64,000 nucleotides of DNA from an uncultured cyanobacterium (GCA_963744145.1 CAVUSO010000001.1:4480001-4544000), one strand, 5' to 3'; positions 1,801 to 61,630 are shown, numbered from the stretch's first letter. Made by a program: numbers and translations. Notes: a model not told the origin generated them from the sequence alone.

Positions 1801-1802
1801 GA

Positions 1803-17449: not shown

Positions 17450-17470
17450 ATAACTGGAGACTCCTGATCT

Positions 17471-24354: not shown

Positions 24355-24427
24355 GGGGCTATAGCTCAGTTGGTAGAGCACTTCAATGGCATTGAAGGGG
24401 CCAGCGGTTCGAGTCCGCTTAGCTCCA
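24355..24427 (+). tRNA. tRNA-Ala(GGC)
   Basis: ggggcta..tagctcc acceptor stem, anticodon arm cttca-atGGCat-tgaag and T-loop gttcgag. Confidence 0.96.
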
Positions 24428-24433
24428 TCGGTA

Positions 24434-24471
24434 AAAAATCTACCCGTGATGAACAGGGGTAGATTTTTTTT
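24434..24471 (+). terminator. Intrinsic terminator after tRNA-Ala
   Basis: aaaaaatctaccc...gggtagatttttt hairpin followed by a T-run. Confidence 0.7.
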
Positions 24472-24509
24472 TGTTAGAAATATTGATATTGATAAGGAGC
24501 AAATTATTA

Positions 24510-26069: not shown

Positions 26070-26086
26070 ATCTCTACCTTTTAACC

Positions 26087-28093
26087 GTGATATTTATCGA
26101 ACTGATTTTAGAAAATTTCGGTCCTTATTTGGGCAGACAGGTCATCGATCTGCGTCCTGAAAAAGATAGTAAATCCTATCCGATTATCCTGATTGGGGGA
26201 ATGAATGGTGGTGGTAAAACTACTTTTATGGACGCAATTCGTCTCGCTCTTTATGGACCGCGGGCTCAATGCTCAACTCGCGGAAATTTAAGCTATAGCG
26301 ATTTTTTGACTCAATCCGTCAATCGACAAACTCCCCCGACGGAAATGACTCAAATTGAATTAGATTTTGAAGTAATTCAAGATGATCAATTAACTAAATT
26401 TAAAGTAGTCAGAAAGTGGAAAAAAGAACCAAAAGATGGTAAAGATATTTTGGGTATTTTAACCTGTAATGATTTTCAAACTGACTGGTGGCCCGATAAA
26501 GCTTTGGCTAATACTTGGGATGACTATATTGAAAATCTCATTCCTTTAGGAATTTCTAATTTATTTCTTTTTGACGGAGAACAAGTTAAAGAACTAGCTG
26601 AGATGGAAACACCACCACTGACTGTAGTGGAAGCGATCCAATCTTTATTAGGATTAGAACTATCGGAAAGACTTTCTCAGGATTTAGAGATTTTGGTAAA
26701 TCGCAAATGCAAAGAAATTATTAGTCCTAAAGACTTGGCTAATCTTGAACAGATTGAAGAAAAATTGGCGATTGAAAAAGATAAATTTGACATTGTTAGT
26801 CAAGAGTTAGTCCGGTTGAATGATGAATTTAAAGTCGCTATAAGCAAGTATGAAGATGCTCAAAATAAGTTTATTTATGAAGGTGGTAAGATTGCTCAAG
26901 AACGGAGTCAACTTGATCAAGAAAATAAACATTTATTAAATCAGTCCGAAAAAATTCGCGAAATTATGCGTGATTTAGCTGCTGATGTTTTACCATTAAG
27001 TTTAATTTACCCCCTCTTAGAACAAGCAAAAATTCAAGCTGAAAAAGAACATAGTCAACAGTCAGTAAAAATTACCATAGATGTGATTAAAAACCGTGAT
27101 CAAAAATTATTGAACTATTTAACAGAATCATCATTATTTAATCCGGAAATTATCGCAGAAATCCAAAAATTTCTTGAGACAGAAAATGCAGTTTTTGAAC
27201 AGCAAATTTTTGATGATGAAAAGATTTGGCTCAAAGCTGAACCAGAAATAATTGAGCAGTTAAATAGCTTACTTAATTATCAATTAAAATCTGTCCAAAA
27301 ACAAGGTCAAGAAAAGTATGAAGAGCTGAAGGAATTGGAAAAAGAAATAGATTTTTTAGAGCGCCAGATCGTTAAATCTGCATCTCCAGAGCTTTACCAA
27401 CAGCTCGAAAAAAATCTCAAAGATGCTCAAACAAAAATGAATGAGATTGAGGTAGAGCGTCAGCTAGTTAAACGTAACTATGATGAACTAGATCAGACAA
27501 TTAAACAGATCAAAAAAGAATTAGCAACCTTTGCAGAAGAAGAAATTAAACAGAGAAGCAATCAACATATTATTCAAGCATCTAGCAAAGTTCAAGAAAC
27601 TTTAAAAGTATTTCGAGAAAAATTGACATTGAAAAAATTAAGCAAATTAGAAAATGAAGTAACTAAATGTTTCCGTTATCTGTTACATAAATCAGATTTA
27701 GTCAATAAAGTAACTATCGATCGCAATTCTTATCGTCTCGCTCTTTATGATCCCCAGGGCGCATTTTTACCGAAAAATCGTCTTTCCGCTGGAGAAAAAC
27801 AATTGCTCGCGATCGCATTTTTATGGGGATTAGCATTAGTCTCTGGTCAGAAATTACCCATCGCCATTGATACTCCTTTAGGAAGACTAGATTCCGAACA
27901 CCGTCAGAATTTAGTTGATCGTTATTTTCCGGCTGCTAGTCATCAAGTGATTTTGCTGTCTACAGATACAGAAATTACTCAAGTTGAATATGCTCGGTTA
28001 CAGGAACAAGAAACGATCGCCCGGGAATATCTCCTTAAATATGATCCGATCGCCAGTCAAACTCTAGTCCAACCGGGTTATTTCTGGCCTTAA
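26087..28093 (+). CDS. dndD: DNA sulfur modification ATPase DndD
   Basis: GMNGGGKTT, LFLFDGEQ, coiled coil, LSAGEKQ and IDTPLGRLDS. Confidence 0.93.
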   Translation: MIFIELILENFGPYLGRQVIDLRPEKDSKSYPIILIGGMNGGGKTTFMDAIRLALYGPRAQCSTRGNLSYSDFLTQSVNRQTPPTEMTQIELDFEVIQDDQLTKFKVVRKWKKEPKDGKDILGILTCNDFQTDWWPDKALANTWDDYIENLIPLGISNLFLFDGEQVKELAEMETPPLTVVEAIQSLLGLELSERLSQDLEILVNRKCKEIISPKDLANLEQIEEKLAIEKDKFDIVSQELVRLNDEFKVAISKYEDAQNKFIYEGGKIAQERSQLDQENKHLLNQSEKIREIMRDLAADVLPLSLIYPLLEQAKIQAEKEHSQQSVKITIDVIKNRDQKLLNYLTESSLFNPEIIAEIQKFLETENAVFEQQIFDDEKIWLKAEPEIIEQLNSLLNYQLKSVQKQGQEKYEELKELEKEIDFLERQIVKSASPELYQQLEKNLKDAQTKMNEIEVERQLVKRNYDELDQTIKQIKKELATFAEEEIKQRSNQHIIQASSKVQETLKVFREKLTLKKLSKLENEVTKCFRYLLHKSDLVNKVTIDRNSYRLALYDPQGAFLPKNRLSAGEKQLLAIAFLWGLALVSGQKLPIAIDTPLGRLDSEHRQNLVDRYFPAASHQVILLSTDTEITQVEYARLQEQETIAREYLLKYDPIASQTLVQPGYFWP

Positions 28094-28113
28094 TTTCATT
28101 TGGAGAAAAAAAT

Positions 28114-28500
28114 ATGGAAATACTAATTGAGCGAATTCGTCTTTCCCAAGTAGCCAAAGAACAACTGATTAGACTCAAACGGATCACCAAAATTGATCAG
28201 TGGAATATTCTCTGTCGGTGGGCATTTTGTCGGTCTTTGGCCGAACCAAGTATTCCTTCCTCAACGACAATTTTAGCAGATAGCAATGTGGAGATGACCT
28301 GGCGGGTATTTGGGGGCGAAATGGCTGATTTGCTGTTAATGGCACTCAAACAACGTTGTCATAACGATGGGTTAGAAGTTACTAACGAAGTCTTGATTAC
28401 TCAATTTCGGCTTCATCTCCATCGAGGGATTGGTTACTTAGCAGGAGATTTAAATATTAAGAAAATTGAAGATTTTCTGGAAATTACCATGAAAAATTGA
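28114..28500 (+). CDS. dndE: DNA sulfur modification protein DndE
   Basis: WNILCRWAFCRSLAE and FRLHLHRGI; follows dndD. Confidence 0.92.
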   Translation: MEILIERIRLSQVAKEQLIRLKRITKIDQWNILCRWAFCRSLAEPSIPSSTTILADSNVEMTWRVFGGEMADLLLMALKQRCHNDGLEVTNEVLITQFRLHLHRGIGYLAGDLNIKKIEDFLEITMKN

Positions 28501-33420: not shown

Positions 33421-34890
33421 TTGACACTCCCACCCCTAAAGGGAAGTGGGATTCTTGAATCAACGACCGCACTTAACCAATTCTAATGTTTCGACTACGC
33501 TCAACACGAGTCACTCAGAACCAGCCAGAGGCGCAGTCTCCTCAAGCGTAGAAATTCCGGTGTGTCCCACCGTATTTTTTAATCCTAATCCTCTTGCTAA
33601 AATGTTCTTGGCAGCGTTCAAATCTCGATGTTCAATTAATCCGCAATTAGGGCATTTATGAGTACGAGTTGACAAAGATTTCTGTACTCTTGTCCCACAT
33701 TTATGGCAATCTTGAGATGTGAAATGGGGTGCTACTGCAAATACATGAACGCCACGTATTTGGGCAAAATAATCTACCCAATCAGTGAACATTGACCATG
33801 CTGCATCAGATATAGATTTAGCAAGTTTATGATTCTTGACCATGTTGCACACTTTCAGATCCTCGTAGACAATCACATCGTTAGATGTTACTAACGTCCT
33901 TGCGGTTCTTACAGCAAATTCTCGACGTTGCCTACTGACCTTTAAGTGCTTTCTTGCCATTTTATTAATGGCTTTTTTACGGTTTTTAGAACCCTTTTTC
34001 CTTTTAGAAACTCTACGTTGTAGTCTCTTTAAGGACTTTTCTGACTTTCTTAAAAATCTAGGGTTTTCTACCTGATTACCGTCTGAATCAGTATAGAAAT
34101 ATTCCAAACCTAAATCAATCCCAACTGCTTTACCTGTTGGTATCTGTGGTTCAGAACGTTCTACCTTAATTAAGAATTGGCAGTAATACCCATCGGCCCT
34201 TTTAACAACCCTAATCCGTTTGATTTGCTCAAGTTGATAGAAATTTAGATCACTAATCCGATGGACGGGAGGATGCGTATTGCAATATGCTCCTTGAGCT
34301 AAGGCTTTAGCGCCATCTTTTAAACCGATTAGCTTAAATGTACCTGCTTTAAAACCATCCGTGAATGTGATCTTCTTTCGATCTTCCGACAGTGACCAGC
34401 CAGTTTGTTTATATTCAACTGATCTGCCACGTTTTTTGAACTTTGGGTAACCTTTCTTCGGTTCCTTCTCCTTACAGTTTTGGTAGAATCTAGAAATTCC
34501 ATTCCATGCTCTATCAGCCGAAGCTTGTCTTGCTTGAGAATTTAGCTTCTTAGCCCACTCAAACTCTTTGGCTAAAGTTGAGCAAAGTTTCTGAAGATCG
34601 TTTTTACTAACACCGCGATTGTCCATCCAGTACCTTAAAGCTTTATTACGAATAAAGTTGGCAGTACGGATTGCTTCGTCTAGCAACTCATACTGCCAAT
34701 CTTTTCCACTTAACTTTGCTTCTAATACCAACATAATTTTTTCGGTGTTAATATTAACAGTATAACAGATAATTAGCTAATTAGCCAACTTAATTAATTA
34801 ATTTTTCAATTAATTTTCACGGCTCCTAAGCCAACAGCTATCCGATTCATCCCGATCCCTAAAAGGAGTGGGCTTTCTCGGTGACAACTT
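33421..34890 (-). mobile_element. IS200/IS605-family tnpB-only (IS1341-like) element, target TTAC
   Basis: Minus strand: TTAC|aagttgtcaccgagAAAGcccactcc.. left hairpin; right hairpin GAATcccacttccctttaggggtggga ending gtgTCAA at 33421. Confidence 0.88.
33511..34734 (-). CDS. tnpB: RNA-guided endonuclease TnpB with an internal in-frame insertion
   Basis: RuvC motifs GIDLG / YEDL / HRDLNAA and Zn finger CHKC..CPNC. Confidence 0.92.
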   Translation of the reverse strand: MLVLEAKLSGKDWQYELLDEAIRTANFIRNKALRYWMDNRGVSKNDLQKLCSTLAKEFEWAKKLNSQARQASADRAWNGISRFYQNCKEKEPKKGYPKFKKRGRSVEYKQTGWSLSEDRKKITFTDGFKAGTFKLIGLKDGAKALAQGAYCNTHPPVHRISDLNFYQLEQIKRIRVVKRADGYYCQFLIKVERSEPQIPTGKAVGIDLGLEYFYTDSDGNQVENPRFLRKSEKSLKRLQRRVSKRKKGSKNRKKAINKMARKHLKVSRQRREFAVRTARTLVTSNDVIVYEDLKVCNMVKNHKLAKSISDAAWSMFTDWVDYFAQIRGVHVFAVAPHFTSQDCHKCGTRVQKSLSTRTHKCPNCGLIEHRDLNAAKNILARGLGLKNTVGHTGISTLEETAPLAGSE

Positions 34891-49392: not shown

Positions 49393-50403
49393 ATGAAAGT
49401 AGTATTTTTTGGCACTCCTGAATTCGCTGTACCAAGTTTACAACGCTTATTAGCTCACCGGAAAATTGAAGTTTTAGGTGTGATTACTCAACCAGATCAA
49501 CCCAGAGGAAGAGGAAAAAAACTCACACCTTCTCCGGTCAAAGTATGTGCTTTATCACATAATTTACCAGTTTGGCAACCTAAAAGGATTAAAAAAGATC
49601 AAGAAGTTATATCTCAATTAAAACAGTTAGAAGCAGATTTTTTTGCTGTAGTAGCTTACGGACAGATTCTTTCCCAAGAGATTTTAGATTTACCCCAATT
49701 TGCTTGTGTCAATGTTCACGGATCTATTTTGCCTAAATATCGCGGTGCTGCACCAATTCAATGGTGTTTATATCATGGGGAAAAAGAAACTGGTATTACC
49801 ACGATGTTGATGGATGTGGGTATGGATACGGGAGCAATGTTATTAAAAGCGACAATCCCAATCAATTTACTAGATAATGCTCAAACTCTAGCAGTGAATT
49901 TAGCTGATATCGGTGCAGATTTATTAGTGGAAACTCTAGTAAAATTACAGTCTCAAACCATTGAACCGATTCCCCAAGACTCTACTCAAGCTAATTATGC
50001 ACCACTAATTCAAAAACAAGATTATGCTCTCGATTGGTCGCGATCGGCTCTTGAGTTACATGATCAAGTCAGGGGATTTTTTCCTAATTGTGTTGCTAAT
50101 TTTCGCGGACAATTAGTCAAAGTAATCTCCACTGTACCGATCGGACCTAATTACTGGGCAGAATTACCAGAACAATTCCAGAGTTTAGCACAAGAATGGC
50201 GATCGCTAGCTGATCTTTCTGGTGATCCCGGAGAAGTGATCAGTATTATCAAACGACTCGGACCAATTGTGCAAACTGGTTCGGGCTTGTTATTATTGCA
50301 GGAAATACAGCTAGCTGGTAAGCGAGTTCAATCAGGTTGGGATTTTGCGAATGGGAGTCATTTGACTGTGGGGGAGATTTGGGTAAATGGTTCAATCATT
50401 TAA
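49393..50403 (+). CDS. fmt: Methionyl-tRNA formyltransferase
   Basis: [12 protein letters not shown] and [16 protein letters not shown]. Confidence 0.95.
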
Positions 50404-50751
50404 CTCAAAAAATCGACATTGGTGACATGGACCACCAGGATTCACCGCACAGCGAATTAATTCCGAATTAGCATTAAAACGACAATTAGCATCTCCTAGA
50501 ATCCAACGTCCATTTACAAAACTTCTTTCTTCTGGTTTTGGAGCAGATTGAACATAGATAGCAACTTTTTCTAAGCAATATTTACCAAATTTAAGTTGAT
50601 ACCGATGACGACGCTCTAAAACTACATAGGTTTCTCCTGCTAAATCGACATAATTCCCCGGTTGGGGAATCCAATCTAGTTGGATCTGACCAAGGGACTG
50701 ACGCGGGTGAAGCAATATTACTTCAGTTGGTAAATAGTCTAACTCCATCAT
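50392..50751 (-). CDS. Conserved cyanobacterial protein (DUF6464-like)
   Basis: ERRHRY and C-terminal [18 protein letters not shown]. Confidence 0.7.
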
Positions 50752-50885
50752 TCTTTAATTAGTCACGGTAGATATACAGTGACTAATTATTTGACGTGAT
50801 GCCAAATTGTTGTCACCGATGAAAACTATTGATTTCTCTATATTCTAGCTGTTTTCCTTGATTAAAGATCGCTAGCCGTTAGTGA

Positions 50886-51014
50886 CCTGAAGTAATATCT
50901 AACCAAATCTCAACCTCTGATCCTAGCGAGAGCAATCTGATTGTCTCGGAACTTCCAGAGGAGACAAGACCAAAGTTGGAAGTGATTCAAAGTTTGCTGG
51001 AACCATGCGATCGC
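50886..51014 (+). pseudogene. tnsB: tnsB N-terminal fragment
   Basis: Translates ..NLIVSELPEETRPKLEVIQSLLEPCDR, matching the recalled V-K TnsB N-terminus (KLEVIQSLLEPCDR). Ends at a HIP1 site. Confidence 0.88.
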
Positions 51015-51144
51015 CAGGGTGGTGGGGGGTTGAGGTTGAAAGCTTCTGGGAAATGCTGCCGCCAATGGGGGAGGGGATGAAGTGCGAACCGATCGCTGTC
51101 GGACAAAATTTGGAGAATTAGCTGCATATCAAAAATCAGCTTAA
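51007..51144 (+). pseudogene. tniQ: tniQ fragments (frameshifted and internally deleted)
   Basis: AIARVVG(+1)VEVESFWEMLPPMGEGMKCEPI joined at CGATCGC to DRCRTKFGELAAYQKSA*; compare V-K TniQ ..AIASVV..MLPPAGVGMQHEPI.. and ..RCRMPFAEMAKLQK. Confidence 0.82.
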
Positions 51145-51238
51145 TGCAGGGCGGAGGAAGAAGAATGTCCTCATTGTTTTCTGCCTTTTGTGAAGATAGT
51201 CAAACGTCAGAGTTAGTCTGGCGATTGCTTAGTAATAA

Positions 51239-54200
51239 TTAATTATTTGATATTTTTTGAGAGAGCCGCTTATAGACTTCTGAAACTAACCAATCAGATA
51301 CCAACTTTTTAAAATTGATGTCATTCATATAACGAGCGAAAATATCTTCGTTTTGATCTACACGCTCAATAAATAAAGACTCAACAATTTGATTAAATAG
51401 CAAGGTAAATTTATCGGGTGAGTTGACTTGTGCTGCTTGTTGCAATTCTTCGCTATTTGCCGCCGCTTCAACAATTTGATCAAAGAAAAGTTGATCGGCT
51501 TGGTTAAAGTCAGTTCCAAAACGACTATTTAACAGATCAATTAGCTGTGATAGTTTAACAGAACTTTCACGCAAAATGCCTGTTCCTAATGCTTTCTGGC
51601 CATCTAAGGGAGATTTTTCCCCTTTTTCTAAATGAATTGAACCTTCACTAATTTTCTGAAGGCGATAATATTCAAGCTGAATATCACTATCAAAATCGTA
51701 TCGATCTTCATTAGAATGACGCAATAATTTAGGAGATAAATGACGTAAAAAAATATAAAGTTGTTCTAAATCAGAATCTTGATAAGGAATAATTTGACTC
51801 AAAAAATTATAGAGATTGCGAAAAGCTGTTAATTTTCTCCGCCAGAGTTCTGCTTCTTCAATATTCTGCTCGTATAAAGCTCGAAATCTATCAACGGCTG
51901 GATCTAATACAGCATTCATTCCTTGATGATCGGCAGGACTTTGACGCGGTTTGGGCTTAAAATAAATCGCGCAAAACCGCTTAATTTCTTCACTTAAATA
52001 GATTCCTGATGCGTCTAATTGACTTTTTAACTGGTAAAGTTGTGTGGGCTCGGCTTCCTGTCCTAACTCTGCCCCTTCATAAAACTGCTGAAATGCTTCT
52101 CGAATCTCCTCCGGTTTATTGACAAAATCAAGGATAAAGGTATCTTCTTTTTGAGGGTGAGTGCGATTCAGACGAGAGAGGGTTTGCACTGCTTGAATAC
52201 CCGATAAACGCTTATCAACATACATCGTATGTAGCAAAGGTTGATCGAAACCTGTTTGATATTTCTCGGCAACTAACAACACTTGATAGTCATTAGTAGC
52301 AAATTTTTCTGGTAATTCCTTCTCCCTAATTCCCTGATTCATTTCTTCTTCTGTATAGGTTTTATCGGAAATTTTATCGTCAGTAACAATTCCTGAAAAC
52401 GCGACTAACGTTTTGATGGGATAGCCTTTTTCTTTAATATATTTGTCAAAACTTTGTTTGTAACGAACTGCTTCCAGACGAGAACCCGTTACCACCATTG
52501 CTTTTGCCTTACCACCGATTTTATGCCGTGTAAAACTATTAAAATGTTCCACCATAATTTCAGTCTTTTGGGCAATATTATGGGGGTGGAGACGCATAAA
52601 ACGAGCTAAAGCTTTCGCGGCTTTTTTGCGCTCAACATGGGGATCATCTGAACAGTCTTTAATCAGTTTGAAGTAAGCTTTATAGGTGGTGTAGTGCTTC
52701 AATACGTCCATGATGAAGATTTCTTCAATCGCTTGACGCATGGTATAACGATGGAAGGGTTCACCTTTGCGACCAAAGAATTTTAGAGTTTTATGTTTGG
52801 GTGTAGCAGTAAAAGCAAAGAAACTGAGATTATCCTGGTGAGAGCGTTTTGCCATGCTCAGGAACATTTCTTCTAAATGTTCTAATCCTTCTTCTTCTGC
52901 CATTTCACGGGCTTTTTGATGCAATGCTTCACCACCGAGTACCCCTTTCAACTCTGTAGCACTATCCCCAGATTGAGAACTGTGAGCCTCATCAATAATC
53001 ACCGCACAGCAACGAGTTGGTAATAGTCCGCGTCCCTGTTCGTTCCGTTCTTCAGCAAGTTTAAGTAATTGTCGCGTAACAAAAGGAAATTTTTGTAGGG
53101 TTGTAATAATAATAGGAACAGCACTTTCTAGTGCTTGCGCTAACTGCTTAGAATCTTTATCTATTTTTTGAATAACGCCTTGACGGTGTTCAAATTGATA
53201 GATTGTGTCTTGTAATTGTTGATCGAGAATGCGGCGATCGCTAATCACAATTACACTATCAAAAATCCGTTGATTTTGCTCGTTATGCAGGGAAGATAAA
53301 CGATGAGTTAACCAACCAATGGTATTACTTTTGCCACTCCCTGCGGAATGTTCGATTAGATAATTCTGTCCGACTCCTTCGAGTTGGGTCGCATCAATTA
53401 ATTGACGGACGGCTTGTAATTGATGGTAACGGGGAAAGATCATGCTCTCTTTTTTGAATTTTCGCCCTTGATCATCATATTTTTGGTCTATTTGTAAATG
53501 GAGAAACTGGGCTAGGAGTTCTAGTAAACTATCTCGTTGTAAAACTTCTTCCCAAAAATAGGCGGTGCGATAGGTTCGTTCTTCGGGGTCGGGAGGGTTG
53601 CCAGCACCGTTATTGTAACCTTTATTAAAGGGTAAAAAATGGGTGGCTTTTCCGGCAAGTCTGGTAGTCATCCAGACTTCTTCGGTATCAACGGTAAAAT
53701 GAACTAATGTTCGCCGTTTAAACTCAAAAATAACCTCGTGAGGATCACGATCTTGGCGATATTGTTGTTTACCTTGTTCTACGGTTTGTCTGGTTAGGGG
53801 ATTTTTGAGTTCAATGGTTACAAGGGGAATACCATTAAGACTGAGGGTAATATCAAGTTCATTATGATTGCGATCGCTATATTGGAGTTGACGGGTAATT
53901 CCTAATTGATTGGCATTATAGCGGGTTTCTAGGTCAGTATTGAGGCTATGGGCGGCTTTGAAATAGGCTATACGCAGGGTACGTCCATAGCATTTGAAAC
54001 CGTGACGCAGGGTGTGGAGTGATCCGTAGGTATCCATCCATTTACACAGATCGGTAATGACTTGATTTGGGGTGTTTTCTCCTTGTAATGCTGCTAATTT
54101 TGCCCATTCTTTGGGTTGGGTTTGGCGGATAAAGTTGATGGCTATCTCAGGAAAAATGGCATGAGTTTTGTCAAATTTGGTTATGGTTTTAAGATAGCCG

Positions 54201-54265
54201 TGAGCTAGAAGGTAATCTTCTATGACTTGCTCAAAGGCAGTTTCGGTATGGCTTGCTATTGTCAT
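51239..54265 (-). CDS. hsdR: Type I restriction endonuclease subunit R
   Basis: LDITLSLNGIPLVTIELKN nuclease motif, HSAGSGKS, IIDEAH, FTATP and QTGFD. Confidence 0.93.
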   Translation of the reverse strand: MTIASHTETAFEQVIEDYLLAHGYLKTITKFDKTHAIFPEIAINFIRQTQPKEWAKLAALQGENTPNQVITDLCKWMDTYGSLHTLRHGFKCYGRTLRIAYFKAAHSLNTDLETRYNANQLGITRQLQYSDRNHNELDITLSLNGIPLVTIELKNPLTRQTVEQGKQQYRQDRDPHEVIFEFKRRTLVHFTVDTEEVWMTTRLAGKATHFLPFNKGYNNGAGNPPDPEERTYRTAYFWEEVLQRDSLLELLAQFLHLQIDQKYDDQGRKFKKESMIFPRYHQLQAVRQLIDATQLEGVGQNYLIEHSAGSGKSNTIGWLTHRLSSLHNEQNQRIFDSVIVISDRRILDQQLQDTIYQFEHRQGVIQKIDKDSKQLAQALESAVPIIITTLQKFPFVTRQLLKLAEERNEQGRGLLPTRCCAVIIDEAHSSQSGDSATELKGVLGGEALHQKAREMAEEEGLEHLEEMFLSMAKRSHQDNLSFFAFTATPKHKTLKFFGRKGEPFHRYTMRQAIEEIFIMDVLKHYTTYKAYFKLIKDCSDDPHVERKKAAKALARFMRLHPHNIAQKTEIMVEHFNSFTRHKIGGKAKAMVVTGSRLEAVRYKQSFDKYIKEKGYPIKTLVAFSGIVTDDKISDKTYTEEEMNQGIREKELPEKFATNDYQVLLVAEKYQTGFDQPLLHTMYVDKRLSGIQAVQTLSRLNRTHPQKEDTFILDFVNKPEEIREAFQQFYEGAELGQEAEPTQLYQLKSQLDASGIYLSEEIKRFCAIYFKPKPRQSPADHQGMNAVLDPAVDRFRALYEQNIEEAELWRRKLTAFRNLYNFLSQIIPYQDSDLEQLYIFLRHLSPKLLRHSNEDRYDFDSDIQLEYYRLQKISEGSIHLEKGEKSPLDGQKALGTGILRESSVKLSQLIDLLNSRFGTDFNQADQLFFDQIVEAAANSEELQQAAQVNSPDKFTLLFNQIVESLFIERVDQNEDIFARYMNDINFKKLVSDWLVSEVYKRLSQKISNN

Positions 54266-54952
54266 TTATTTTTTCCTTTTTTGTGCTTTAATAGCCTCAA
54301 GTCTTGCAATATGTTTTTCTAATGCTTGAATCAAAACAAAACAAAATTCATCTAATTTGTCTCGTTGTTGAGTCTTTAAATCTCTAAGTCGTTTTCGTGC
54401 ATCTTTAAGCGGAAGATTATTTTCCTTCCCAATAGTTCCTTGAATTGCTGCTTTGCGTTTATCTTCAAGCTCACTATAATCAAGACCGAGTTTTGTAATC
54501 GTCATTGCTGCTGCCTGATCTCCAGCCTGATTTTCAATTTGACCTCGTAATTTAAAAATAAAGCGAGATTCACAGCTTTGATTTAAAGGAGAAACAAATA
54601 AATGCTGTTCATCATTCCCAGACCAATGATCTTTTTTATGAGCGCCATAAGGAACTTTATACTTGGTATTAGGTCCAGGATAGCAAGCTACAATATTACT
54701 GTATAAAACAGTTTCACCAGCAGTACAGTGTGTTTGAGGTTTGAGGTGTTCGATATGACATTTTTGTTCATCAATGCTCAAACCTGTGTATGCACATAAC
54801 CAGCCTTGTTCTTCTAGTAAAGAACGAGTCACTGCTTGAACCACATCACTGTTTTTTCGCATCAAATCATAACCAAAATTAATGTCGTTAGAATAACGAG
54901 ATCGCCATTCCTTTAACTGCTCAGGTTCATTCCTCTTCTGAATCCACTTCAT
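54266..54952 (-). CDS. HNH endonuclease (PtuB / TIGR02646-like)
   Basis: LLEEQGWLCAYT..HIEHLKPQ..YSNIVAC; overlaps the ATPase stop codon. Confidence 0.8.
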   Translation of the reverse strand: MKWIQKRNEPEQLKEWRSRYSNDINFGYDLMRKNSDVVQAVTRSLLEEQGWLCAYTGLSIDEQKCHIEHLKPQTHCTAGETVLYSNIVACYPGPNTKYKVPYGAHKKDHWSGNDEQHLFVSPLNQSCESRFIFKLRGQIENQAGDQAAAMTITKLGLDYSELEDKRKAAIQGTIGKENNLPLKDARKRLRDLKTQQRDKLDEFCFVLIQALEKHIARLEAIKAQKRKK

Positions 54953-56255
54953 CTGCTAATGCCTCTAGGTTATTAATGCTGGCTTCAAAACGGGAAGTTT
55001 CATCGTCACTTCCGATCATACGCTTTAAAGTGTCAAGTTGATTTCTGGCTAACTCAAGATTGCCTTCTTCTAGTGAATCTTCTATAGAATTGATTTGATC
55101 TTGAGATTTGCGGTTGCGGGGTTCAGTTTCCATTAAATGTTTAAGAATCCAGCTAGAATCTAACCCAAAGGATTGAAGACCTTCTTGAATTACAATAACT
55201 CGGTTGTCTTCTTTTTGAAGTAAAATCAAACCACTGGGGTGAACTTCTCCAATGATTTGTGGTGAATGGGTAGTTGCAATAAATTGGCAATTTGGGAATG
55301 TCTGAGTCAGTTTTTCTACGATTGTTCGTTGCCAGCGTGGATGCAAATGTAGATCGAGTTCATCAATTAACACAACTGCTTTCCCTTGCTCTAATGGGTT
55401 CTCTAATTTAGGATTTGCTTGCGAAAGTCGTCGTGCCAAGTCAAGAATTAATGCTAAGATACCTCGTTCACCGTCTGAAAACAAACGTATATCAAGCTTC
55501 ATTCCTTCTTTATTTAAAAGTAATGTTGTTGTAGGTTCTCTAATAACCTCAAGTCCAGTACAGGTATCAATAAAGTTGGTTACTGCATTGTTTAATACGC
55601 TTAGATGTTTTTCTGCTAATTTTACACCTTCTTTCACCAGTGCTTCTTGAACTAACAACCACTCGGCAAATTCACGAAGGCGTAGTTCGCGATGAGTTAG
55701 TGCATCAGCAAAAGCAGCAGCTTGATTTCCTGCACTACTCTGTTTGCTAGGAGTCGCCATGTTAGCTAATGAACGACGGGTAGAAAAATAGAGTGCTAGT
55801 GGTTGTTGTTCAGCTGCTTTTAGATACTTTAGAATATCTTTTTGCTTCATGCCTTTAAGCTCTTGTGGAAGATGCTTGTCTAAAATCTCTCGAAGACGTT
55901 TTAGTTCAGGTAAATTACCATCGTCGTTTTCGATAGGTTCACTACTATGTTTAATGTTTTTCTCTCGCCATCTTCTGCTTTCGTACTCTAAACTAACACC
56001 AGCTATATTACATACAAGTGAAGTATAAAGCCAATCACGTTCAACAGTAATATCTTTGACATCAAAGTCAAGACGCTTACTTTTAGAAACGCCAACAATG
56101 GGTAGAAGTTGTGAGAGCATAATCCTTATTGCGTCAAGTACAGTGGATTTACCCACACCATTGATGCCAACAAGTAGGTTCATCCCAGGCTGAAACTCAA
56201 ATTCTGCCTGTTCAAAAGCTCGAAAATTAGTAAGTGTAAGGCGGTTAATCTGCAT
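54927..56255 (-). CDS. ABC/AAA ATPase (PtuA-like)
   Basis: Walker A GINGVGKS, signature FSDGE, Walker B/D-loop VLIDELDLHLHPRWQ and H-loop TTHSP. Confidence 0.85.
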   Translation of the reverse strand: MQINRLTLTNFRAFEQAEFEFQPGMNLLVGINGVGKSTVLDAIRIMLSQLLPIVGVSKSKRLDFDVKDITVERDWLYTSLVCNIAGVSLEYESRRWREKNIKHSSEPIENDDGNLPELKRLREILDKHLPQELKGMKQKDILKYLKAAEQQPLALYFSTRRSLANMATPSKQSSAGNQAAAFADALTHRELRLREFAEWLLVQEALVKEGVKLAEKHLSVLNNAVTNFIDTCTGLEVIREPTTTLLLNKEGMKLDIRLFSDGERGILALILDLARRLSQANPKLENPLEQGKAVVLIDELDLHLHPRWQRTIVEKLTQTFPNCQFIATTHSPQIIGEVHPSGLILLQKEDNRVIVIQEGLQSFGLDSSWILKHLMETEPRNRKSQDQINSIEDSLEEGNLELARNQLDTLKRMIGSDDETSRFEASINNLEALADEVDSEEE

Positions 56256-56257
56256 AG

Positions 56258-57529
56258 TTACTCCTTGATTTTAAGTTGTCCGGTGACTGCTGCTGTAATT
56301 AATGATGTTCGACGTTCTTCTAAGAGTTTAATTGTTTTGTCTGTAGCTATTTTTAAAGAATCCAATTTGAAAACTTCATTTTTAATATGAGACACGATAG
56401 AATACTGTTCATTCAAGGGAGGCAATATAATTATTAAGCCACTAATAATTTCTGTATTTAAGTTTTCCATTGTCGTCCCAACAGACATCATAGACAAACT
56501 TTTACCCACAAAAGTATTTAACACCAGTAAAACTAAATATTCAGAATCGATAATTTCTAAATTAGGTCGCACTCTCAGACTACCTGAACCACACAACCAT
56601 CCAACTTCTTGTTGAGTTACCACTCCACATCGTCCAATCTCTCCTCGACGGGCAAAAACGATATCGCCACTCTCTAATTTATGAATTGACAAACGTTTTA
56701 CTGTTTCTTGATCTACAGCTACTTGATAGTCTGGAACAATTTTACCATCAACTAAATGTACAGGATTAATAACTGGAAGACCATCATCAACATAGTCTTC
56801 TGCATGGAGTTGTGTTCCAAAAGGGCCTGTTTGAAGTGATTTACTTACTGTTTTAAGTCTTTGAATTGACCAATGCTCAGGAATTTCTTTCATCCACTCA
56901 ACACCAGAATCTCGCATCGGAACATCAGGATTTAACCCACGAGTTACCGCATGGGTAATGAGGGTACGACGTTTTTCATCCAATAATTCTAGTAATCGTT
57001 TTTTGGCTTTAATTAGCTCATCTATTTTGCCTGTTTTTTGATCAAGATAATTTGCGATCGCTTCCTGAATGGAAAGTGAGTGTAAATTAATCGGAAAATC
57101 GGTAAATTTTTTTCGACTGAGTTCAATTTGATTAGTTGCTCCTTCAGAACATAAAACAGTTAGCGTGTCTTGCTGAATACTAAGGTAATAAAAAAGATAT
57201 TTTGGATAAAATCGTTGCAGTGTATCTCGAATAACAGTAACGTGTCCATCTGCAAATGTAGGTTTTTTAGGTTCTATATCAACAATTGCTACTCGGCCAA
57301 GAGTTCCTGTACCTGTAGAGTTAATTAGAATATCATCTTTGTATATCCAAGATGTAATTTTTTCTATTTCATTAGGATCTTGATATTTAGTTTTTAATAA
57401 ATTTAAACCATCAGGTGAAACACAGGCTTGATTAACAACGTGAATATCGGAATATTCAGTATAAACTGGAGCATCACCACGAGAAATAAAATCAGCAATA
57501 TATTTTAGTTTAAGTATTAAATTATTCAC
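56258..57529 (-). CDS. hsdS: Type I RM specificity subunit S
   Basis: Two TRDs separated by LITHAVTRGL..MRDSGVEW..IPEHW; ends LITAAVTGQ. Confidence 0.92.
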   Translation of the reverse strand: MNNLILKLKYIADFISRGDAPVYTEYSDIHVVNQACVSPDGLNLLKTKYQDPNEIEKITSWIYKDDILINSTGTGTLGRVAIVDIEPKKPTFADGHVTVIRDTLQRFYPKYLFYYLSIQQDTLTVLCSEGATNQIELSRKKFTDFPINLHSLSIQEAIANYLDQKTGKIDELIKAKKRLLELLDEKRRTLITHAVTRGLNPDVPMRDSGVEWMKEIPEHWSIQRLKTVSKSLQTGPFGTQLHAEDYVDDGLPVINPVHLVDGKIVPDYQVAVDQETVKRLSIHKLESGDIVFARRGEIGRCGVVTQQEVGWLCGSGSLRVRPNLEIIDSEYLVLLVLNTFVGKSLSMMSVGTTMENLNTEIISGLIIILPPLNEQYSIVSHIKNEVFKLDSLKIATDKTIKLLEERRTSLITAAVTGQLKIKE

Positions 57530-59553
57530 TTTGTCACCTCCTGCAATAACCTAATAATCTCCTCTTCCATCTGTTTAATATCTGCATCAATTTCAGCTAA
57601 TGGACGAGGGGGCGTATATTTGTAAAAATAGCGATTAAAATTAATCTCATAAGCAATTCTAATATTTTCTCCATCTGCCCAAGCATCAGCAACATGAGGT
57701 TCAATTTCTTCAAGAAAATAACGGATAATTTCATCTTGTAAATTAATATTTTCAAAGTCTCTTAACTTCGAGTCTGCTTCATACATCCGTTCTATTTTTT
57801 TACCAGGAACAGGAAACCATCCCCAAACACGAGAGTTAGGTTCACCTGTGACCTTACGTTCCTTCAAAATAACAGGTTTTGCCTCTATTTCTCGTTCTGT
57901 AAATACATCTTTAAATAGCTTTTGTTCAACTTTTTTCCAACGACTACTACGCTGCTTTAATAAATCCGTCATTAACCGATCAAATTCACTCCAATCAGAA
58001 CGAGGTTCGCGTCCCAATTCTCGATCGATTGCTTGAACATCATCTAATAAGTGGGGAACGGCATCCAGAAAACGACTTTTGCGATCGAGATTCATTTGAT
58101 AGAGTAAACGTAGGGGTCGTTCAATGGGAACGCGGTGATAACCAAAATCCTCATTATCAAAAATCTTGCTGGTTTCACTTTCGACAAATTTCCCATATTC
58201 ACGCACCACAATAGCAATATCTTCTTCACCCATATAACGGCGTTTATCTCCTAAACTACGTCGCATCGGTTGCCAACAGTGACGAGCATCAATCAGTTGA
58301 ATTTTGCCTTTACGGTGTTTCTGTTTCCGGTTGGTAACAATCCAAATATAAGTACCAATTCCTGTGTTATAAAACATCTGTTCAGGTAGAGCAATAATCG
58401 CTTCTAACCAATCACTTTCGATAATCCATTTGCGAATTTCACTTTCACCACTCCCAGCACCTCCTGTAAATAAAGGTGAACCATTAAATACAATGGCAAG
58501 ACGAGAACCATTTTTATGATTTTCAGGTTGATAGAGTTCAAATTTCCTAATTTGATGCTGTAAAAACAACAGCGAACCATCATTAACTCTAGGCAACCCT
58601 GCCCCAAAACGTCCGGCAAAACCTAGCTTTTCATGTTCTCGTTTCACTTCCTTTTGCTGTCTCTTCCAGTCCACACCAAAAGGGGGATTTGCTAGAAAAT
58701 ACTCAAAGGTTTCATCAGGGTATTTATCATCAATTAAAGAGTCGCCAAACTGAATAGAACTTTTTTCATTTTCCTTCATTAATAAGTCTGAAGCGGCAAT
58801 GGCATAAGCACGGGGATTAAAATCTTGACCAAAAACCCAGAGTTGTGCTTCTTTATTATTTTCTCGTAAATAATTTTGAGCTTCTGCTAACATTCCCCCC
58901 GTACCACAAGTGGGGTCAAGGAGTTTGCAAATTACGGATTTAGTCAGAATATCATCATCAGGATCGAATAAAATATCAACCATTAAGCGGATGACTTCTC
59001 GTGGTGTAAAGTGGTCCCCTGCGGTTTCGTTGGCAGTTTCATTAAAACGACGAATTAAGTCTTCAAAAACTGACCCCATTGCAATGTTATCTACTCGATC
59101 GGGGTGTAAATCTACATCGCAAAACTTCGAGATGACTAGATAGAGGATGTTCGCCTCATTCATCTTTTCAATTTCTGCGGTAAACTCGAAACGTTCAAAG
59201 ATTTCGCAGATATTTTTTGAGAAACTATTGATATAGTTCACTAAATGTTTATCAATATTATTCGGATCGCCTTTGAGCTTTTCAAAGGTGAGTTCAGAAC
59301 GATTGTAAAAGCGTTGTCCTGCTGCTTTATTAAGCATAGAATCGAGAGCATCATCTTTTAATCGATCTTTGTATTGCTGATATTTAGTTAAAACGTCCTG
59401 TTTAGTGGGTGCAAGTACGCAGTCAAAACGGCGTAACACCGTCATTGGTAGCATAACTCGTTCATATTGCGGAGGTCGATAGGGACCACGTAAAAGATCG
59501 GCTATTTGCCAGATAAAATTAGAAAGTTGGTGATGATCAGCCATTTGTTGCAA
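57526..59553 (-). CDS. hsdM: Type I RM methyltransferase subunit M
   Basis: Motifs FIWQIADLLRG, HFTPREV, DPTCGTGG and NPPF. Confidence 0.95.
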   Translation of the reverse strand: MQQMADHHQLSNFIWQIADLLRGPYRPPQYERVMLPMTVLRRFDCVLAPTKQDVLTKYQQYKDRLKDDALDSMLNKAAGQRFYNRSELTFEKLKGDPNNIDKHLVNYINSFSKNICEIFERFEFTAEIEKMNEANILYLVISKFCDVDLHPDRVDNIAMGSVFEDLIRRFNETANETAGDHFTPREVIRLMVDILFDPDDDILTKSVICKLLDPTCGTGGMLAEAQNYLRENNKEAQLWVFGQDFNPRAYAIAASDLLMKENEKSSIQFGDSLIDDKYPDETFEYFLANPPFGVDWKRQQKEVKREHEKLGFAGRFGAGLPRVNDGSLLFLQHQIRKFELYQPENHKNGSRLAIVFNGSPLFTGGAGSGESEIRKWIIESDWLEAIIALPEQMFYNTGIGTYIWIVTNRKQKHRKGKIQLIDARHCWQPMRRSLGDKRRYMGEEDIAIVVREYGKFVESETSKIFDNEDFGYHRVPIERPLRLLYQMNLDRKSRFLDAVPHLLDDVQAIDRELGREPRSDWSEFDRLMTDLLKQRSSRWKKVEQKLFKDVFTEREIEAKPVILKERKVTGEPNSRVWGWFPVPGKKIERMYEADSKLRDFENINLQDEIIRYFLEEIEPHVADAWADGENIRIAYEINFNRYFYKYTPPRPLAEIDADIKQMEEEIIRLLQEVTK

Positions 59554-59675
59554 ATCCTTCGCTCAATTCACCCAAAGTGGGAGTCTCTATCGAATTTTCC
59601 TGTTTTGCTGTAATTGTTTGATTATGATTATTCTGAAAATTAATTCCGTCTGTACTTTGAGTCCTATCTACAAAA

Positions 59676-60134
59676 TTAAACTATGCGATCGCCTGTGGTA
59701 GCAAAACTGCTGAGATTATCGCGTAAGCGTTGATGAATGCGATCGCTCCAAAACGGTACAACAGACAAACCCTGATTAATTGTTTGCAAGGCTAAATCGC
59801 TGTTAAAATCGACTAAACACCGCTGTTTTGAATCCATTAACAACATAAAACGCTTCATTTGCTGTTCTGATAACGATTGCCCAAATAACCATGACTCATT
59901 GGTTTTGAGAATTTCCAGAATTTCCCGACAAACCTCAAAACTCAACCCGATAGAGAGTAAATATTCCATCACCGTCAGCCCCAATAGGTCAGCTACAGAA
60001 TAATAAACATTGCGACCCTTACCAATCGGGTTCACTGTGGGCACAATAACCCCTTTCTCGCGCCAATACTGCAATTGCCGCCGAGAGCATCCGGTAATCT
60101 GTGCCGCTTCTGTACTGGTGTAGAAATTATCCAT
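59676..60134 (-). CDS. cvkR: MerR-family regulator, CvkR-like (CAST V-K repressor)
   Basis: MerR HTH (TGCSRRQLQYWREKG..GRNVYYS), divergent from the cas12k start. Confidence 0.8.
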   Translation of the reverse strand: MDNFYTSTEAAQITGCSRRQLQYWREKGVIVPTVNPIGKGRNVYYSVADLLGLTVMEYLLSIGLSFEVCREILEILKTNESWLFGQSLSEQQMKRFMLLMDSKQRCLVDFNSDLALQTINQGLSVVPFWSDRIHQRLRDNLSSFATTGDRIV

Positions 60135-60181
60135 AGATTTTTATAATACTTAACTTCGTGCAAAATAATTTGAGAATTTTA

Positions 60182-60215
60182 AACACATAGTGTGTTCTTG
60201 TGCTACTATATTTTG
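60182..60215 (+). promoter_or_regulatory. CvkR-box-like palindrome plus -10 element of a probably leaderless cas12k promoter
   Basis: AACACATAGTGTGTT (60182-60196) differs at one position from the recalled CvkR motif AnnACATnATGTnnT. TACTAT at 60204-60209 lies 6 nt before the ATG at 60216. Confidence 0.65.
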
Positions 60216-60266
60216 ATGAGTCAAATAACTATTCAATGCCGTTTAATTGCCAAAGAATCCAGCCAA
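60216..60266 (+). pseudogene. cas12k: cas12k 5' remnant (about 16 codons)
   Basis: MSQITIQCRLIAKES matches the typical Cas12k N-terminus and is fused directly to a CRISPR repeat. Confidence 0.85.
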
Positions 60267-60303
60267 GTTTCAACCACCATTTCAGCTAGGGGTGGTTTAA
60301 AAG
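60267..60303 (+). CRISPR. Single degenerate 37-nt type V-K CRISPR repeat
   Basis: gtttcaaccaccatttcagctaggggtggtttaaaag: 37 nt, aaccacc/ggtggtt stem, end resembling GTTGAAAG. There is only one copy, so this is not an array. Confidence 0.7.
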
Positions 60304-60433
60304 TCTATAAGGATATGGGCGTAGTCGTCACTGGCAACTAAACGAGAATAATTTGTCCCAAAGACATTTAACTTGTCTCGACGACAGTAATTTGTCCCCG
60401 ACGACATTTAATTAGTCACTGTACAGAACCTAA

Positions 60434-60504
60434 AGCGGGCAGCGGGAATCGAACCCGCATCTTTAGCTTGGAAGGCTAAGGTTTTACCACTAAACCATGC
60501 CCGC
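60434..60504 (-). tRNA. tRNA-Gly(TCC)
   Basis: gcgggcatggtttagtggtaaaaccttagcctTCCaagctaaagatgcgggttcgattcccgctgcccgct. Confidence 0.96.
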
Positions 60505-60604
60505 GATAATCACGTTTATTCAATATAGCACAGACTTCAACAATAATAACAGACTTTTTCAAAAATTTGTTCAAATTCCTGTCAAATTCTCCCAAACCCT
60601 TCAT

Positions 60605-61630
60605 TTACAAAGGTTCGAGGATAACTGACATTTCCAGCAAACTGTCAACGGGTTTACCACCGAGATAAGCTGGGACAAATTGCCAATCGGTGATCATTTT
60701 TTTGATTAACTGTTGTTCATCTACACCAGTAGGACCTTTGATGATCTGAATATAATTGGGATCAGGTTGTCCTGAACTATGGATTAGTAACCGTAAGGTG
60801 GCAACTTGACCAAAACTTTTTTCGGTTGATGATATATACTTGAGAGTGGGAAATTTGGCAATGGTTTGTTTTGGATGGGCTGATTGATCAGGAAGATCGT
60901 GATTTCCATTACCAAGTCGAAAGTTTTGGATCGTTAGGGACACACCTTGACCACCCTGACCACTTTTTCCCTGAGCTGGTACTGGTTGCGATCGCGTTTT
61001 CGATGGTTCTACCTGAGTAGATTTAGTTTTATTTCCTGAATTACTATTACTTTCTAAAGATTTACCCTGATTGATCAGTTGCTTCTGGTTTCCTGATGGT
61101 GATATTACTTTCGGTAAATCAGATTTTTTCGGTGGAACTAATTCTTTACTGCGATTTTCTGGTCTTAAAGATCCTGTTCCTGACTGATTATTACTGGAAT
61201 TAGGGATTTTCTTTGGTGCTACTTCTGGGACAGGAGCTGGTAAATTTTTGGTAGGGACAGATTTTGATACTTGTGAATCAGATTTTACCCGATTAGGTAC
61301 TAATGATTTAGATAAAGGTTTAGGAGGAACAAGACTGGAAGAAACAGGGGTTTTTTGAGAAGATACAAATTTATTATTACTAGATAATTGAGGTGTTTTT
61401 CCGATTAGCTGGTCTCCATCAATAGATAAGACTGGAATTAGATCGGTAGGGAGATTAGCTGATTGGTTTGTTTCCGTTGTTAGATATTTACCAATTAGCC
61501 AAAATCCAAATAAATGTAAACTAATTGAAACTAAAATTAGCCCTAACCACAAAGTGGGAGAATGATCAGTTGACTGATATTGATGACCTGGTTTAAATAG
61601 AGAAGATGTCATAATCAGAAAATATATCAA
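60605..61630 (-). CDS. TonB-like protein (TM anchor, Pro/Ser/Lys-rich linker, C-terminal domain)
   Basis: SISLH anchor, low-complexity linker and WQFVPA..GKPV. Confidence 0.6.
   Translation of the reverse strand: MIYFLIMTSSLFKPGHQYQSTDHSPTLWLGLILVSISLHLFGFWLIGKYLTTETNQSANLPTDLIPVLSIDGDQLIGKTPQLSSNNKFVSSQKTPVSSSLVPPKPLSKSLVPNRVKSDSQVSKSVPTKNLPAPVPEVAPKKIPNSSNNQSGTGSLRPENRSKELVPPKKSDLPKVISPSGNQKQLINQGKSLESNSNSGNKTKSTQVEPSKTRSQPVPAQGKSGQGGQGVSLTIQNFRLGNGNHDLPDQSAHPKQTIAKFPTLKYISSTEKSFGQVATLRLLIHSSGQPDPNYIQIIKGPTGVDEQQLIKKMITDWQFVPAYLGGKPVDSLLEMSVILEPL

Follow-up and report, generated by a model that had tools for sequence, protein, structure and literature searches.

What a Septu-type defence pair is doing inside a type I restriction–modification (RM) operon is the question raised by one locus of an uncultured cyanobacterium. 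The window, that is, the whole stretch of 64,000 nucleotides that was analyzed (GCA_963744145.1 CAVUSO010000001.1:4480001-4544000), contains five co-oriented, intact open reading frames (ORFs), hsdM-hsdS-ptuA-ptuB-hsdR, which fill positions 59553-51239 of the minus strand. The arrangement is read here as a composite type I RM–Septu system, a five-gene operon inherited and transferred as a unit. In a bolder reading, to which a probability of roughly one in three is given, PtuA and PtuB (PtuAB) would be built into a distinct type I RM holoenzyme as a pair of subunits. A four-helix adaptor evolved in HsdM would hold PtuA, the methyltransferase core would act as sensor or antitoxin, and the nuclease would fire upon inhibition or loss of that core; the C-terminal domain (CTD) of PtuA together with PtuB would be a swapped module, and the whole would represent a second, independent PrrC-like guard, found in at least 11 phyla.

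What the data show directly is which genes are present, that their motifs are intact and their junctions tight, and that gene order is conserved throughout the clade. HsdM matched Pfam N6_Mtase (2.5e-53) and HsdM_N (5.4e-26) and, end to end, the PADLOC MTase_I model PDLC03029 (4.4e-265). Its NPPF motif was invariant across the 27 complete cassettes that served for pairwise comparison, 26 of them from related loci and one from the window, and its AlphaFold2 (AF2) model, with a mean predicted local distance difference test score (pLDDT) of 81.3, gave type I M subunits as top PDB folds. HsdS matched Pfam Methylase_S in two stretches (7.2e-22) and PADLOC PDLC03072 (1.2e-92). HsdR carries SWI2_SNF2, HSDR_N, ResIII and T1R_D3-like Pfam domains and the motifs D-x13-E-x-K, AGSGKSNT, DEAH and QTLSRLNR; 394 of its 1008 positions, including the first three motifs, were kept in at least 26 of the 27 cassettes. 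On the genes this is a type I RM system, with hsdM, hsdS and hsdR all present with catalytic motifs and Pfam scores above the gathering cut-offs. The NCBIfam type I equivalogs, which remained under their cut-offs (hsdM 81 versus 242.75, hsdR 200.3 versus 284.55), therefore point to a divergent type I RM subfamily.

The two genes between hsdS and hsdR are, on the genes, a Septu pair, namely a PtuA-family ATP-binding cassette (ABC) ATPase gene with a co-oriented PtuB-family HNH gene directly downstream. PtuA matched PADLOC PDLC00271 at 1e-122 across residues 1-434 of 442 and the PtuA of PDB entry 8EE4 at 9e-33 over residues 1-400. The AF2 model (mean pLDDT 86.7) gave query-based template modelling scores (TMq) of 0.70-0.77 against PtuA structures in Foldseek, and the closest PtuA in the protein collection, from Planktothrix agardhii, was 97% identical. 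The Walker A (GINGVGKS), signature (FSDGERG), Walker B/D-loop (VLIDELDLHLHP) and H-loop (TTHSP) motifs are present, and Walker A, signature, Walker B and H-loop were invariant in the alignment. PtuB matched PADLOC PDLC00346 (1.8e-68) and TIGR02646 (68.1 bits versus a cut-off of 52.15), and its family profile matched the PtuB chain 8EE7_C at 3.6e-25. For both proteins the Septu models ranked first in PADLOC. Its motifs are C53-x-Y55, IEH (E68 H69) and N86, and C53, Y55, E68, H69 and N86 were invariant in 33 sequences.

The junctions measure -4, +2, -26 and 0 nt in the order M/S, S/A, A/B and B/R, and across related cassettes they are mostly 4-nt overlaps. The mechanical hsdM ORF (59553-57526) runs to 675 aa from a TTG; from the sequence, the ATG at 59544 is the likelier start. 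No reverse transcriptase (RT) domain was found with Pfam in any ORF of 50392-60134, and an Rfam scan of 50000-61000 returned tRNA-Gly as the sole RNA family, with no retron RNA. A preliminary description of the locus had listed intact, co-oriented and tightly joined hsd and ptu genes, an ATPase with full ABC motifs overlapping an HNH gene, a Septu-like pair and no retron RT, and all of these points are borne out by the ORFs, the translated motifs, the 26-nt overlap, the PADLOC and TIGR02646 matches and the domain and RNA scans.

Three other identities were considered and rejected. A type I-A retron (Ec78/Eco7) is ruled out by the NCBIfam retron models, which fell under cut-off (PtuA NF041760 243.1 versus 500, PtuB 79.5 versus 150), and also by the absent RT domain and the absent msr-msd noncoding RNA (ncRNA) at the locus. 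PrrC is ruled out since the slot holds PtuA and a separate HNH protein, and no PrrC model was among the 25 best PADLOC matches. MADS gave weak partial matches only (MAD2 59 bits versus 720, MAD3 44 versus 420, MAD5 59 versus 400).

The recurrence of the arrangement was studied by scanning the genome_contigs collection with an alignment of the window PtuA and 24 database relatives. Two peptide patterns were hit by at least 601 stretches, of which 584 code for relatives, and the 80 top-ranking loci were retained. Genes were labelled using iterated profiles for which the five proteins of the window served as seeds, and the labelling was repeated on all ORFs instead of a greedy subset. The order hsdM-hsdS-ptuA-ptuB-hsdR was present in 39 of the 80 loci, and because it recurs in this way the five-gene arrangement is beyond chance and not a one-off insertion. 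In the RM-linked loci hsdS lies directly upstream of ptuA without exception (39/39), hsdM lies upstream in each of the 36 loci whose contig reaches far enough (in L006, L024 and L054 the contig end cuts the flank), and ptuB is present in 38/38 (L060 is cut). Downstream, hsdR was found in 34 of the 39, with L054 retaining its first 83 codons only, at the contig end. Within 10 kb, L013 and L044 have no hsdR; in L027, L045 and L060 the contig stops short of the gene; and it is broken in L011 (three pieces, with insertion sequence (IS) elements between) and L028 (two pieces). In 40 loci there were no hsd genes near ptuAB, and L037, which begins inside ptuA, could not be judged. The ptuAB genes were lost or moved in none of the 39 RM-linked loci.

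Other genes are found sporadically at the M/S, S/A and B/R junctions: VapBC-like PIN pairs (L001, L002), Uma2 (L003), IS elements (L004, L011), RhuM (L015, L035), Schlafen-AlbA2/HATPase_c_4 (L023) and unassigned ORFs (L020, L071, L076). The junctions are therefore hotspots, with ptuAB the constant element. As a separate observation, the Spirochaetia cassette L020 carries a second, longer PtuA-like ATPase gene (16342-18102, 586 aa) directly after hsdR.

A quick maximum-likelihood PtuA tree was prepared from 78 rows, one for the window and 77 for related loci; PtuA is truncated or split in L037, L040 and L060, which were excluded. One branch, with 100% support in the Shimodaira–Hasegawa-like approximate likelihood ratio test (SH-aLRT), separated 39 RM-linked rows (38 loci plus the window) from the 39 others. 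The RM label thus requires one change on the tree, a value as low being reached in none of 500 label shuffles. With hsdS adjoining ptuA throughout, this is repeated linkage to type I RM; the preliminary description had named its absence as refuting, and that refutation clearly fails. The RM side comprises 11 named phyla: Cyanobacteriota, Pseudomonadota, Chloroflexota, Acidobacteriota, Bacteroidota, Gemmatimonadota, Spirochaetota, Planctomycetota, Armatimonadota, Kiritimatiellota and Ca. Binatota. Given one tree change, a single origin is possible and the 39 loci are not independent events; the informative part is that the gene order is retained over deep divergence. A search for a PtuA domain or insert specific to the RM side found none, the two clades being alike in architecture and similar in median length (437 and 447 aa).

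The surroundings of the sister clade were scanned against Pfam for 40 of the 104 listed neighbours, covering the nearest upstream genes and a few others. None of the 40 carried an RT domain; the families encountered were metallophosphoesterase, GAF, MurJ, kinases, DUF4112 and the like. A retron origin of this clade was also considered through a conserved upstream 305-aa gene of Nostocales and rejected, the product being a calcineurin-like phosphoesterase and not an RT. Judged by its neighbours, the sister clade appears to consist of stand-alone Septu pairs in ordinary gene neighbourhoods, and the earlier idea that the RM complex had taken the place of a retron is not upheld. Plasmid-borne PtuA matches at no more than 30% identity (Annamia, Zymomonas) likewise belong to stand-alone ptuAB pairs. 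On two short contigs, a 717-748-aa protein with an Eco57I-type methylase domain is encoded directly 5′ of sister-clade ptuAB (L042:28-2181 and L063:29-2275), which is a caveat to the stand-alone label and may represent another methylase-linked Septu context.

One interpretation of these data is that an autonomous Septu system was inserted once, in one type I RM lineage, at the hotspot between hsdS and hsdR and stayed uncoupled from that lineage, gaining from shared transcription and co-transfer alone as the operon moved as a block. A single tree change means that one embedding event suffices; PtuA has no RM-specific domain and its sister clade lives in stand-alone contexts; and the junctions also take up unrelated passengers (L001, L002, L003, L015, L023, L035) and IS elements (L004, L011). 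DarTG2 is described in the same slot in E. coli (PMC12255303), and a selfish benefit of linked transfer has been proposed (Payne et al., bioRxiv 10.1101/2024.01.29.577857). Against this account, ptuAB were lost or moved in 0/39 loci despite PtuA identities down to 28-37% across 11 phyla, while the other passengers are transient, and a predicted HsdM–PtuA complex (below) gives a pass against controls of 0.00, its contacts falling on an HsdM insert whose conservation is restricted to PtuAB-linked proteins. Uncoupled insertion is considered unlikely.

The RM partner was examined as a lineage of its own. Among the 27 cassettes the median pairwise identity was 0.68 for HsdR (range 0.59-0.91), 0.62 for HsdM, 0.37 for PtuA, 0.32 for PtuB and 0.27 for HsdS, with median patristic distances of 0.84 (HsdR), 1.11 (HsdM), 2.01 (PtuA) and 2.78 (PtuB). 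PtuA and PtuB evolve faster than HsdR and HsdM. A tblastn search of 72,556 plasmids with the window HsdR returned 766 records. Four matched at 67.4% identity and all four carry PtuAB; they are Ketogulonicigenium vulgare plasmids of one lineage, typed as conjugative, with the order hsdM-hsdS-AAA ATPase-"retron system putative HNH endonuclease"-hsdR. The next best match was at 47.1%, and none of the seven relatives examined at or below 47% had ptuAB. Here hsdM, hsdS and hsdR were contiguous in plasmids of Halorussus, C. atypicum and E. faecium; Halobacterium DL1 has hsdM, an unannotated gap and hsdR; Variovorax has hsdM, hsdS, a 102-aa ORF and hsdR; Polaromonas has a solitary hsdR; and the B. 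thuringiensis locus is degraded. On these comparisons the cassette RM is a distinct type I subfamily, and the whole PtuA clade appears confined to it. Note that a Phd/YefM-family antitoxin gene lies immediately 5′ of hsdM both in K. vulgare pYP1 (L081, with PtuAB) and in the C. atypicum plasmid (L086, without PtuAB), with no toxin partner annotated alongside in either.

The relationship between HsdM and PtuA was explored by complex prediction for one pair, HsdM residues 130-672 with PtuA, using custom row-matched alignments. The interface score ipSAE was 0.61, 0.62 and 0.61 in three runs, and the best of three controls reached 0.00. The mark used is reached by 116 of 157 solved complexes and by 2 of 215 mismatched pairs, a calibration that is rough here as own alignments were used. 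The runs shared at least 84% of contacts, with partner pLDDT of at least 74. The predicted contacts involve HsdM residues 486, 489-495, 497-498, 500, 504, 543 and 547 and PtuA residues 174-177, 180, 195-214 and 279. In the single-protein AF2 models the HsdM insert (residues 482-555) forms helices at 486-495, 497-510, 518-531 and 538-548 (pLDDT above 90), within a confident C-terminal region, and the PtuA contact region forms helices at 178-182, 193-208 and 212-228. No entry holding both HsdM and PtuA was among the listed best folds of either protein, and recall of a known complex by the model is therefore an unlikely source of the pass. Among solved M subunits, those that match best have 424-497 residues and a TMq of about 0.5, which suggests that the four-helix module has no solved counterpart. 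The interaction between RM and PtuAB that had been put forward in the preliminary description thus gains model support, and the models favour docking of the PtuA ATPase body on the four-helix insert in the HsdM C-terminal module. PtuA being unadorned relative to its sister clade, any adaptor would lie in HsdM.

The distribution of the insert was compared between cassette HsdM and five nonlinked HsdM sequences, all from plasmids. Residues 482-555 were conserved in 27/27 aligned cassettes and in K. vulgare (56% identical to the window). In Variovorax and Enterococcus, whose operons lack PtuAB, the segment is deleted; in Halorussus, Halobacterium and C. atypicum, likewise without PtuAB, it is just 13-17% identical, as against 54-57% for the catalytic domains of the same three proteins (45-57% over all five). 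This independent comparison is convergent evidence and supports the predicted docking. The genomic context and the complex prediction argue against a self-sufficient two-gene function of Septu at this locus.

Covariation within the cassette was analyzed on pairwise identities. HsdM and PtuA correlated at rho 0.81 (Mantel test, 0/2000 permutations as high), above HsdM and HsdR (rho 0.71), and the value for PtuA and PtuB was just 0.31. Splitting PtuA into body and CTD resolved the low whole-protein value: residues 1-359 track HsdM (0.67-0.77) and not PtuB (0.17-0.31), and the CTD (residues 360-442) tracks PtuB (0.70) and not HsdM (0.35). PtuB has been described as sitting on the C-terminal helices of PtuA (PMC13376987). 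The covariation of the PtuA CTD with PtuB recovers this published contact and can thus be taken as a positive control of the approach. Two PtuB subtypes occur in the RM cassettes, alpha (HIEHLKPQ...GAH.K), which includes the window protein (HIEHLKPQ...YGAHKK), and beta (MKIEHW.CQ...HCDT.K), and their distribution crosses the PtuA and HsdM clades; L015 and L018, for example, are alpha and their close relative L035 is beta. These patterns suggest that the PtuA CTD and PtuB are exchanged as a module, and the cassette looks like a mosaic in which hsdM through to the ptuA body would be one evolving unit and the ptuA CTD with ptuB another.

Several points weigh against coupling and a guard role. Covariation of the HsdM insert with PtuA 170-216 did not rise above the cassette-wide signal: the insert correlates at 0.57 with the PtuA interface segment and at 0.81 with the PtuA core, and the partial correlation given the catalytic domain was just 0.21. 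With no interface-specific signal, physical gene linkage can explain the covariation. PtuA has no clade-specific domain or insert, and the contacted segment is kept in both clades. Three HsdM proteins from PtuAB-less operons have an insert of similar length and different sequence, and the module is therefore older than the association with PtuAB. The complex score is the model's own confidence, drawn from alignments that share one phylogeny; a single pair was run, and the controls included neither a stand-alone PtuA nor an insert-less HsdM. The loci are the best 80 of at least 584 relatives, fetched via two peptide patterns, and a single ancient embedding followed by co-transfer may account for the one change on the tree. 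Finally, stand-alone Septu is described as autonomous and ATP-regulated (PMC12819146), so that a partner is not required in principle.

Despite these points, RM and PtuAB are probably functionally coupled, and the interpretation in the preliminary description is supported in part. As to how, the likeliest role is that of a PrrC-like guard or backup, which is put at somewhat below even odds and for which published systems give a precedent. PrrC, encoded among the hsd genes of EcoprrI, is kept silent by that enzyme until Stp frees it; it is almost exclusive to type I RM, and a backup role has been proposed for embedded ABC-ATPase defences (Payne et al., bioRxiv 10.1101/2024.01.29.577857). A retron similarly sequesters toxic PtuAB (PMC12819146). 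On the pattern of PrrC and EcoprrI, or of the Ec78 retron and its PtuAB, the cassette PtuAB would be held silent on the methyltransferase core (M2S1 or full R2M2S1). A phage anti-restriction factor that hits the core, or loss of the core, would then release or activate PtuAB, and the PtuB HNH nuclease would cut nucleic acid, either DNA or tRNA, as a second line of defence.

The genomic data fit this guard model, a model in which PtuAB serves restriction and a model in which it enforces retention of the cassette alike. In the second of these, PtuAB would ride HsdM as a restriction effector that is switched on at unmethylated DNA, with the PtuB HNH nickase adding cuts near the recognition site or on HsdR-nicked DNA, and the benefit would be stronger restriction, for instance of linear or single-site phage genomes. 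This model draws on the linkage, docking and covariation results that also underlie the guard, translational coupling at S-A and B-R would match the amounts of all five proteins, and stand-alone E. coli PtuAB reportedly nicks plasmids and acts on nicked DNA (PMC11555353, PMC12819146). Some cassettes nevertheless keep apparently whole hsdM, hsdS, ptuA and ptuB with hsdR missing (L013, L044) or broken (L011, L028), which is unexpected if PtuAB serves only HsdR-dependent restriction. These loci, though few, lean against a purely HsdR-dependent role; RM operons in general tolerate hsdR loss first. No type I enzyme is known to use an extra nuclease subunit. A role as restriction effector is rated as doubtful, as unlikely as uncoupled insertion.

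It could also be that PtuAB is a toxin with HsdM or M2S1 as antitoxin, stabilizing a mobile cassette by killing cells that lose it, with phage defence secondary. The predicted HsdM–PtuA contact is compatible with this, the cassette is mobile, being carried on the K. vulgare conjugative plasmid and scattered over phyla, hsdM is present in 36/36 loci with the flank available, and unrestrained retron-type PtuAB is toxic (PMC12819146). Note, however, that type I RM is itself already described as behaving as an addiction module, so that an added toxin gains little, that retention of hsdM is expected of any RM operon and is non-discriminating, and that the fast evolution of PtuA and PtuB fits a phage arms race better than a housekeeping toxin–antitoxin pair. 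This possibility is rated quite improbable.

The cassette was set against known systems. Septu type I (E. coli ATCC 25922; 8EE4, 8EE7, 8EEA) has the same two proteins, in the same order (ABC ATPase then HNH) and with the same fold. In contrast to it, the cassette copy is never alone but a fixed part of a type I RM operon, in which its translation is coupled to that of hsdS and hsdR, its PtuA has a predicted HsdM contact, and its identity to the solved PtuA is about 21-25%. Retron-Eco7 (Ec78), or Septu type II, has homologous PtuA and PtuB, which its partner sequesters via the PtuA ATPase body (PMC12819146), whereas the cassette has no RT or ncRNA. The Retron-Eco7 PtuA has gained an N-terminal extension and a helical flap that bind RT and multicopy single-stranded DNA (msDNA) (PMC12819146); the cassette PtuA has no such additions, and HsdM carries the candidate adaptor. 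PrrC with EcoprrI shares the slot between hsd genes, an ABC-type ATPase effector and, by analogy, the proposed masked-nuclease logic, but the cassette has two proteins with an HNH nuclease and PrrC is a single fusion of ATPase and anticodon nuclease.

Nested defences are known elsewhere. Septu embedded in Hma, and DarTG2 in the RRDM island of enteropathogenic E. coli (EPEC) (PMC12255303), likewise place a defence within a methylase-containing system, the latter in the hsdS-hsdR slot, and type I RM is a host of embedded defences more generally. The Hma cases make up 0.7% of Septu systems and were treated as independent passengers (Payne et al., bioRxiv 10.1101/2024.01.29.577857), in contrast to the cassette, where a whole PtuA clade appears confined to one RM subfamily. 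In PARIS (AriA ABC ATPase and AriB nuclease) a scaffold likewise is described as holding a nuclease until an anti-restriction protein (Ocr) appears. The similarity between PtuA and AriA is weak, at P-loop level, AriB is of TOPRIM type, and PARIS is not tied to an RM operon. In the literature consulted, no description was found of HsdM–PtuA binding or of a Septu clade that occurs only within one type I RM subfamily, and the supplements of Payne et al. may count Septu in RM.

Communication between layered defences is an open question in phage immunity. To our knowledge, PrrC with EcoprrI is the only classical nuclease that guards a restriction enzyme, embedded systems being otherwise seen as independent passengers. 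The conservation of the cassette across phyla suggests that two defences here work as one machine and not as neighbours. Predicted residues 482-555 of HsdM and 174-214 of PtuA offer a concrete, mutable candidate interface, and natural negative controls exist in stand-alone sister PtuAB pairs and in sister RM operons without PtuAB or without the insert; the guard hypothesis is therefore directly testable. The comparison suggests that regulation of Septu is modular, through ATP level in the stand-alone form, a retron in type II and, as proposed here, an RM core. For annotation, PADLOC-type tools presumably call the locus as two separate systems.

Features of the RM–Septu locus and its upstream flank, in window coordinates
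Feature	Position	Strand	Description
hsdM	57526..59544	-	672 aa, type I methyltransferase subunit, from ATG at 59544
hsdM insert codons	57880..58101	-	residues 482-555, four-helix insert, motif RFLDAVPHLLDDVQAID, predicted PtuA docking surface
hsdS	56258..57529	-	specificity subunit, 423 aa, GTG start, 4-nt overlap with hsdM end
ptuA	54927..56255	-	Septu-type ABC ATPase, 442 aa
ptuA contact codons	55614..55736	-	residues 174-214, set against HsdM insert in complex model
ptuB	54266..54952	-	HNH nuclease, 228 aa, alpha subtype, 26-nt overlap with ptuA end
hsdR	51239..54265	-	restriction/translocase subunit, 1008 aa, begins directly after ptuB stop codon
MerR-family helix-turn-helix (HTH) gene	59676..60134	-	152 aa, co-oriented, upstream of hsdM; Pfam MerR_1 2.6e-16
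tRNA-Gly(UCC)	60434..60504	-	upstream flank of island; ARAGORN; Rfam tRNA 75.7 bits

The MerR-family gene, which gave a weak match to PADLOC mad1 (1.3e-06), lies outside the conserved cassette and is local to the window. A regulator shared upstream of the cassettes was not found among the 18 co-oriented genes scanned of the 32 that lie immediately 5′ of hsdM. These 18 encode an Xre HTH protein, Schlafen-AlbA2, RES, a kinase and metabolic proteins, with no common family, and the MerR gene is therefore regarded as local; it may act as a local regulator of the cassette. Promoter and terminator scans of 50300-60700 gave counts not above those of shuffled sequence (23 versus 27.7 and 6 versus 7.5, respectively).

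The island is solitary, flanked by tRNA-Gly(UCC) on one side and by a DUF6464 gene and then fmt on the other. An exact 13-nt direct repeat (50754-50766 and 60407-60419) brackets the island from the MerR gene to the 3′ flank of hsdR. One copy lies 15 nt downstream of tRNA-Gly; the other, an arm of a 10-bp inverted repeat, is found a short way upstream of the DUF6464 gene. Two matches compare with 0.16 expected, and two were reached in 2 of 100 shuffles, for a pattern chosen after it had been seen. The island has no integrase, and the repeat is a candidate insertion scar at most.

Elsewhere in the window, type III-B CRISPR effector genes occupy positions 2-6969 of the minus strand, encoding Cmr2/Cas10 (3883-6969), Cmr3 (2708-3886) and a RAMP protein (1803-2708) together with further small ORFs. 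A tRNA-Ala(GGC) is followed by a dnd-like set (24354-28500), comprising a DndC-like protein with a 3′-phosphoadenosine-5′-phosphosulfate (PAPS)-reductase domain (24471-26069), a DndD-like SMC/AAA_23 ATPase (26087-28093) and DndE (28114-28500). With this set and the Cmr genes, further defence-related loci in the window number at least three. An IS605 OrfB/TnpB gene (33511-34734), a gene for a second protein, with a Cas12f1-like TNB domain (9385-10941), and two Uma2-family genes (16889-17449 and 21786-22610), the last two being putative endonuclease genes, were also observed.

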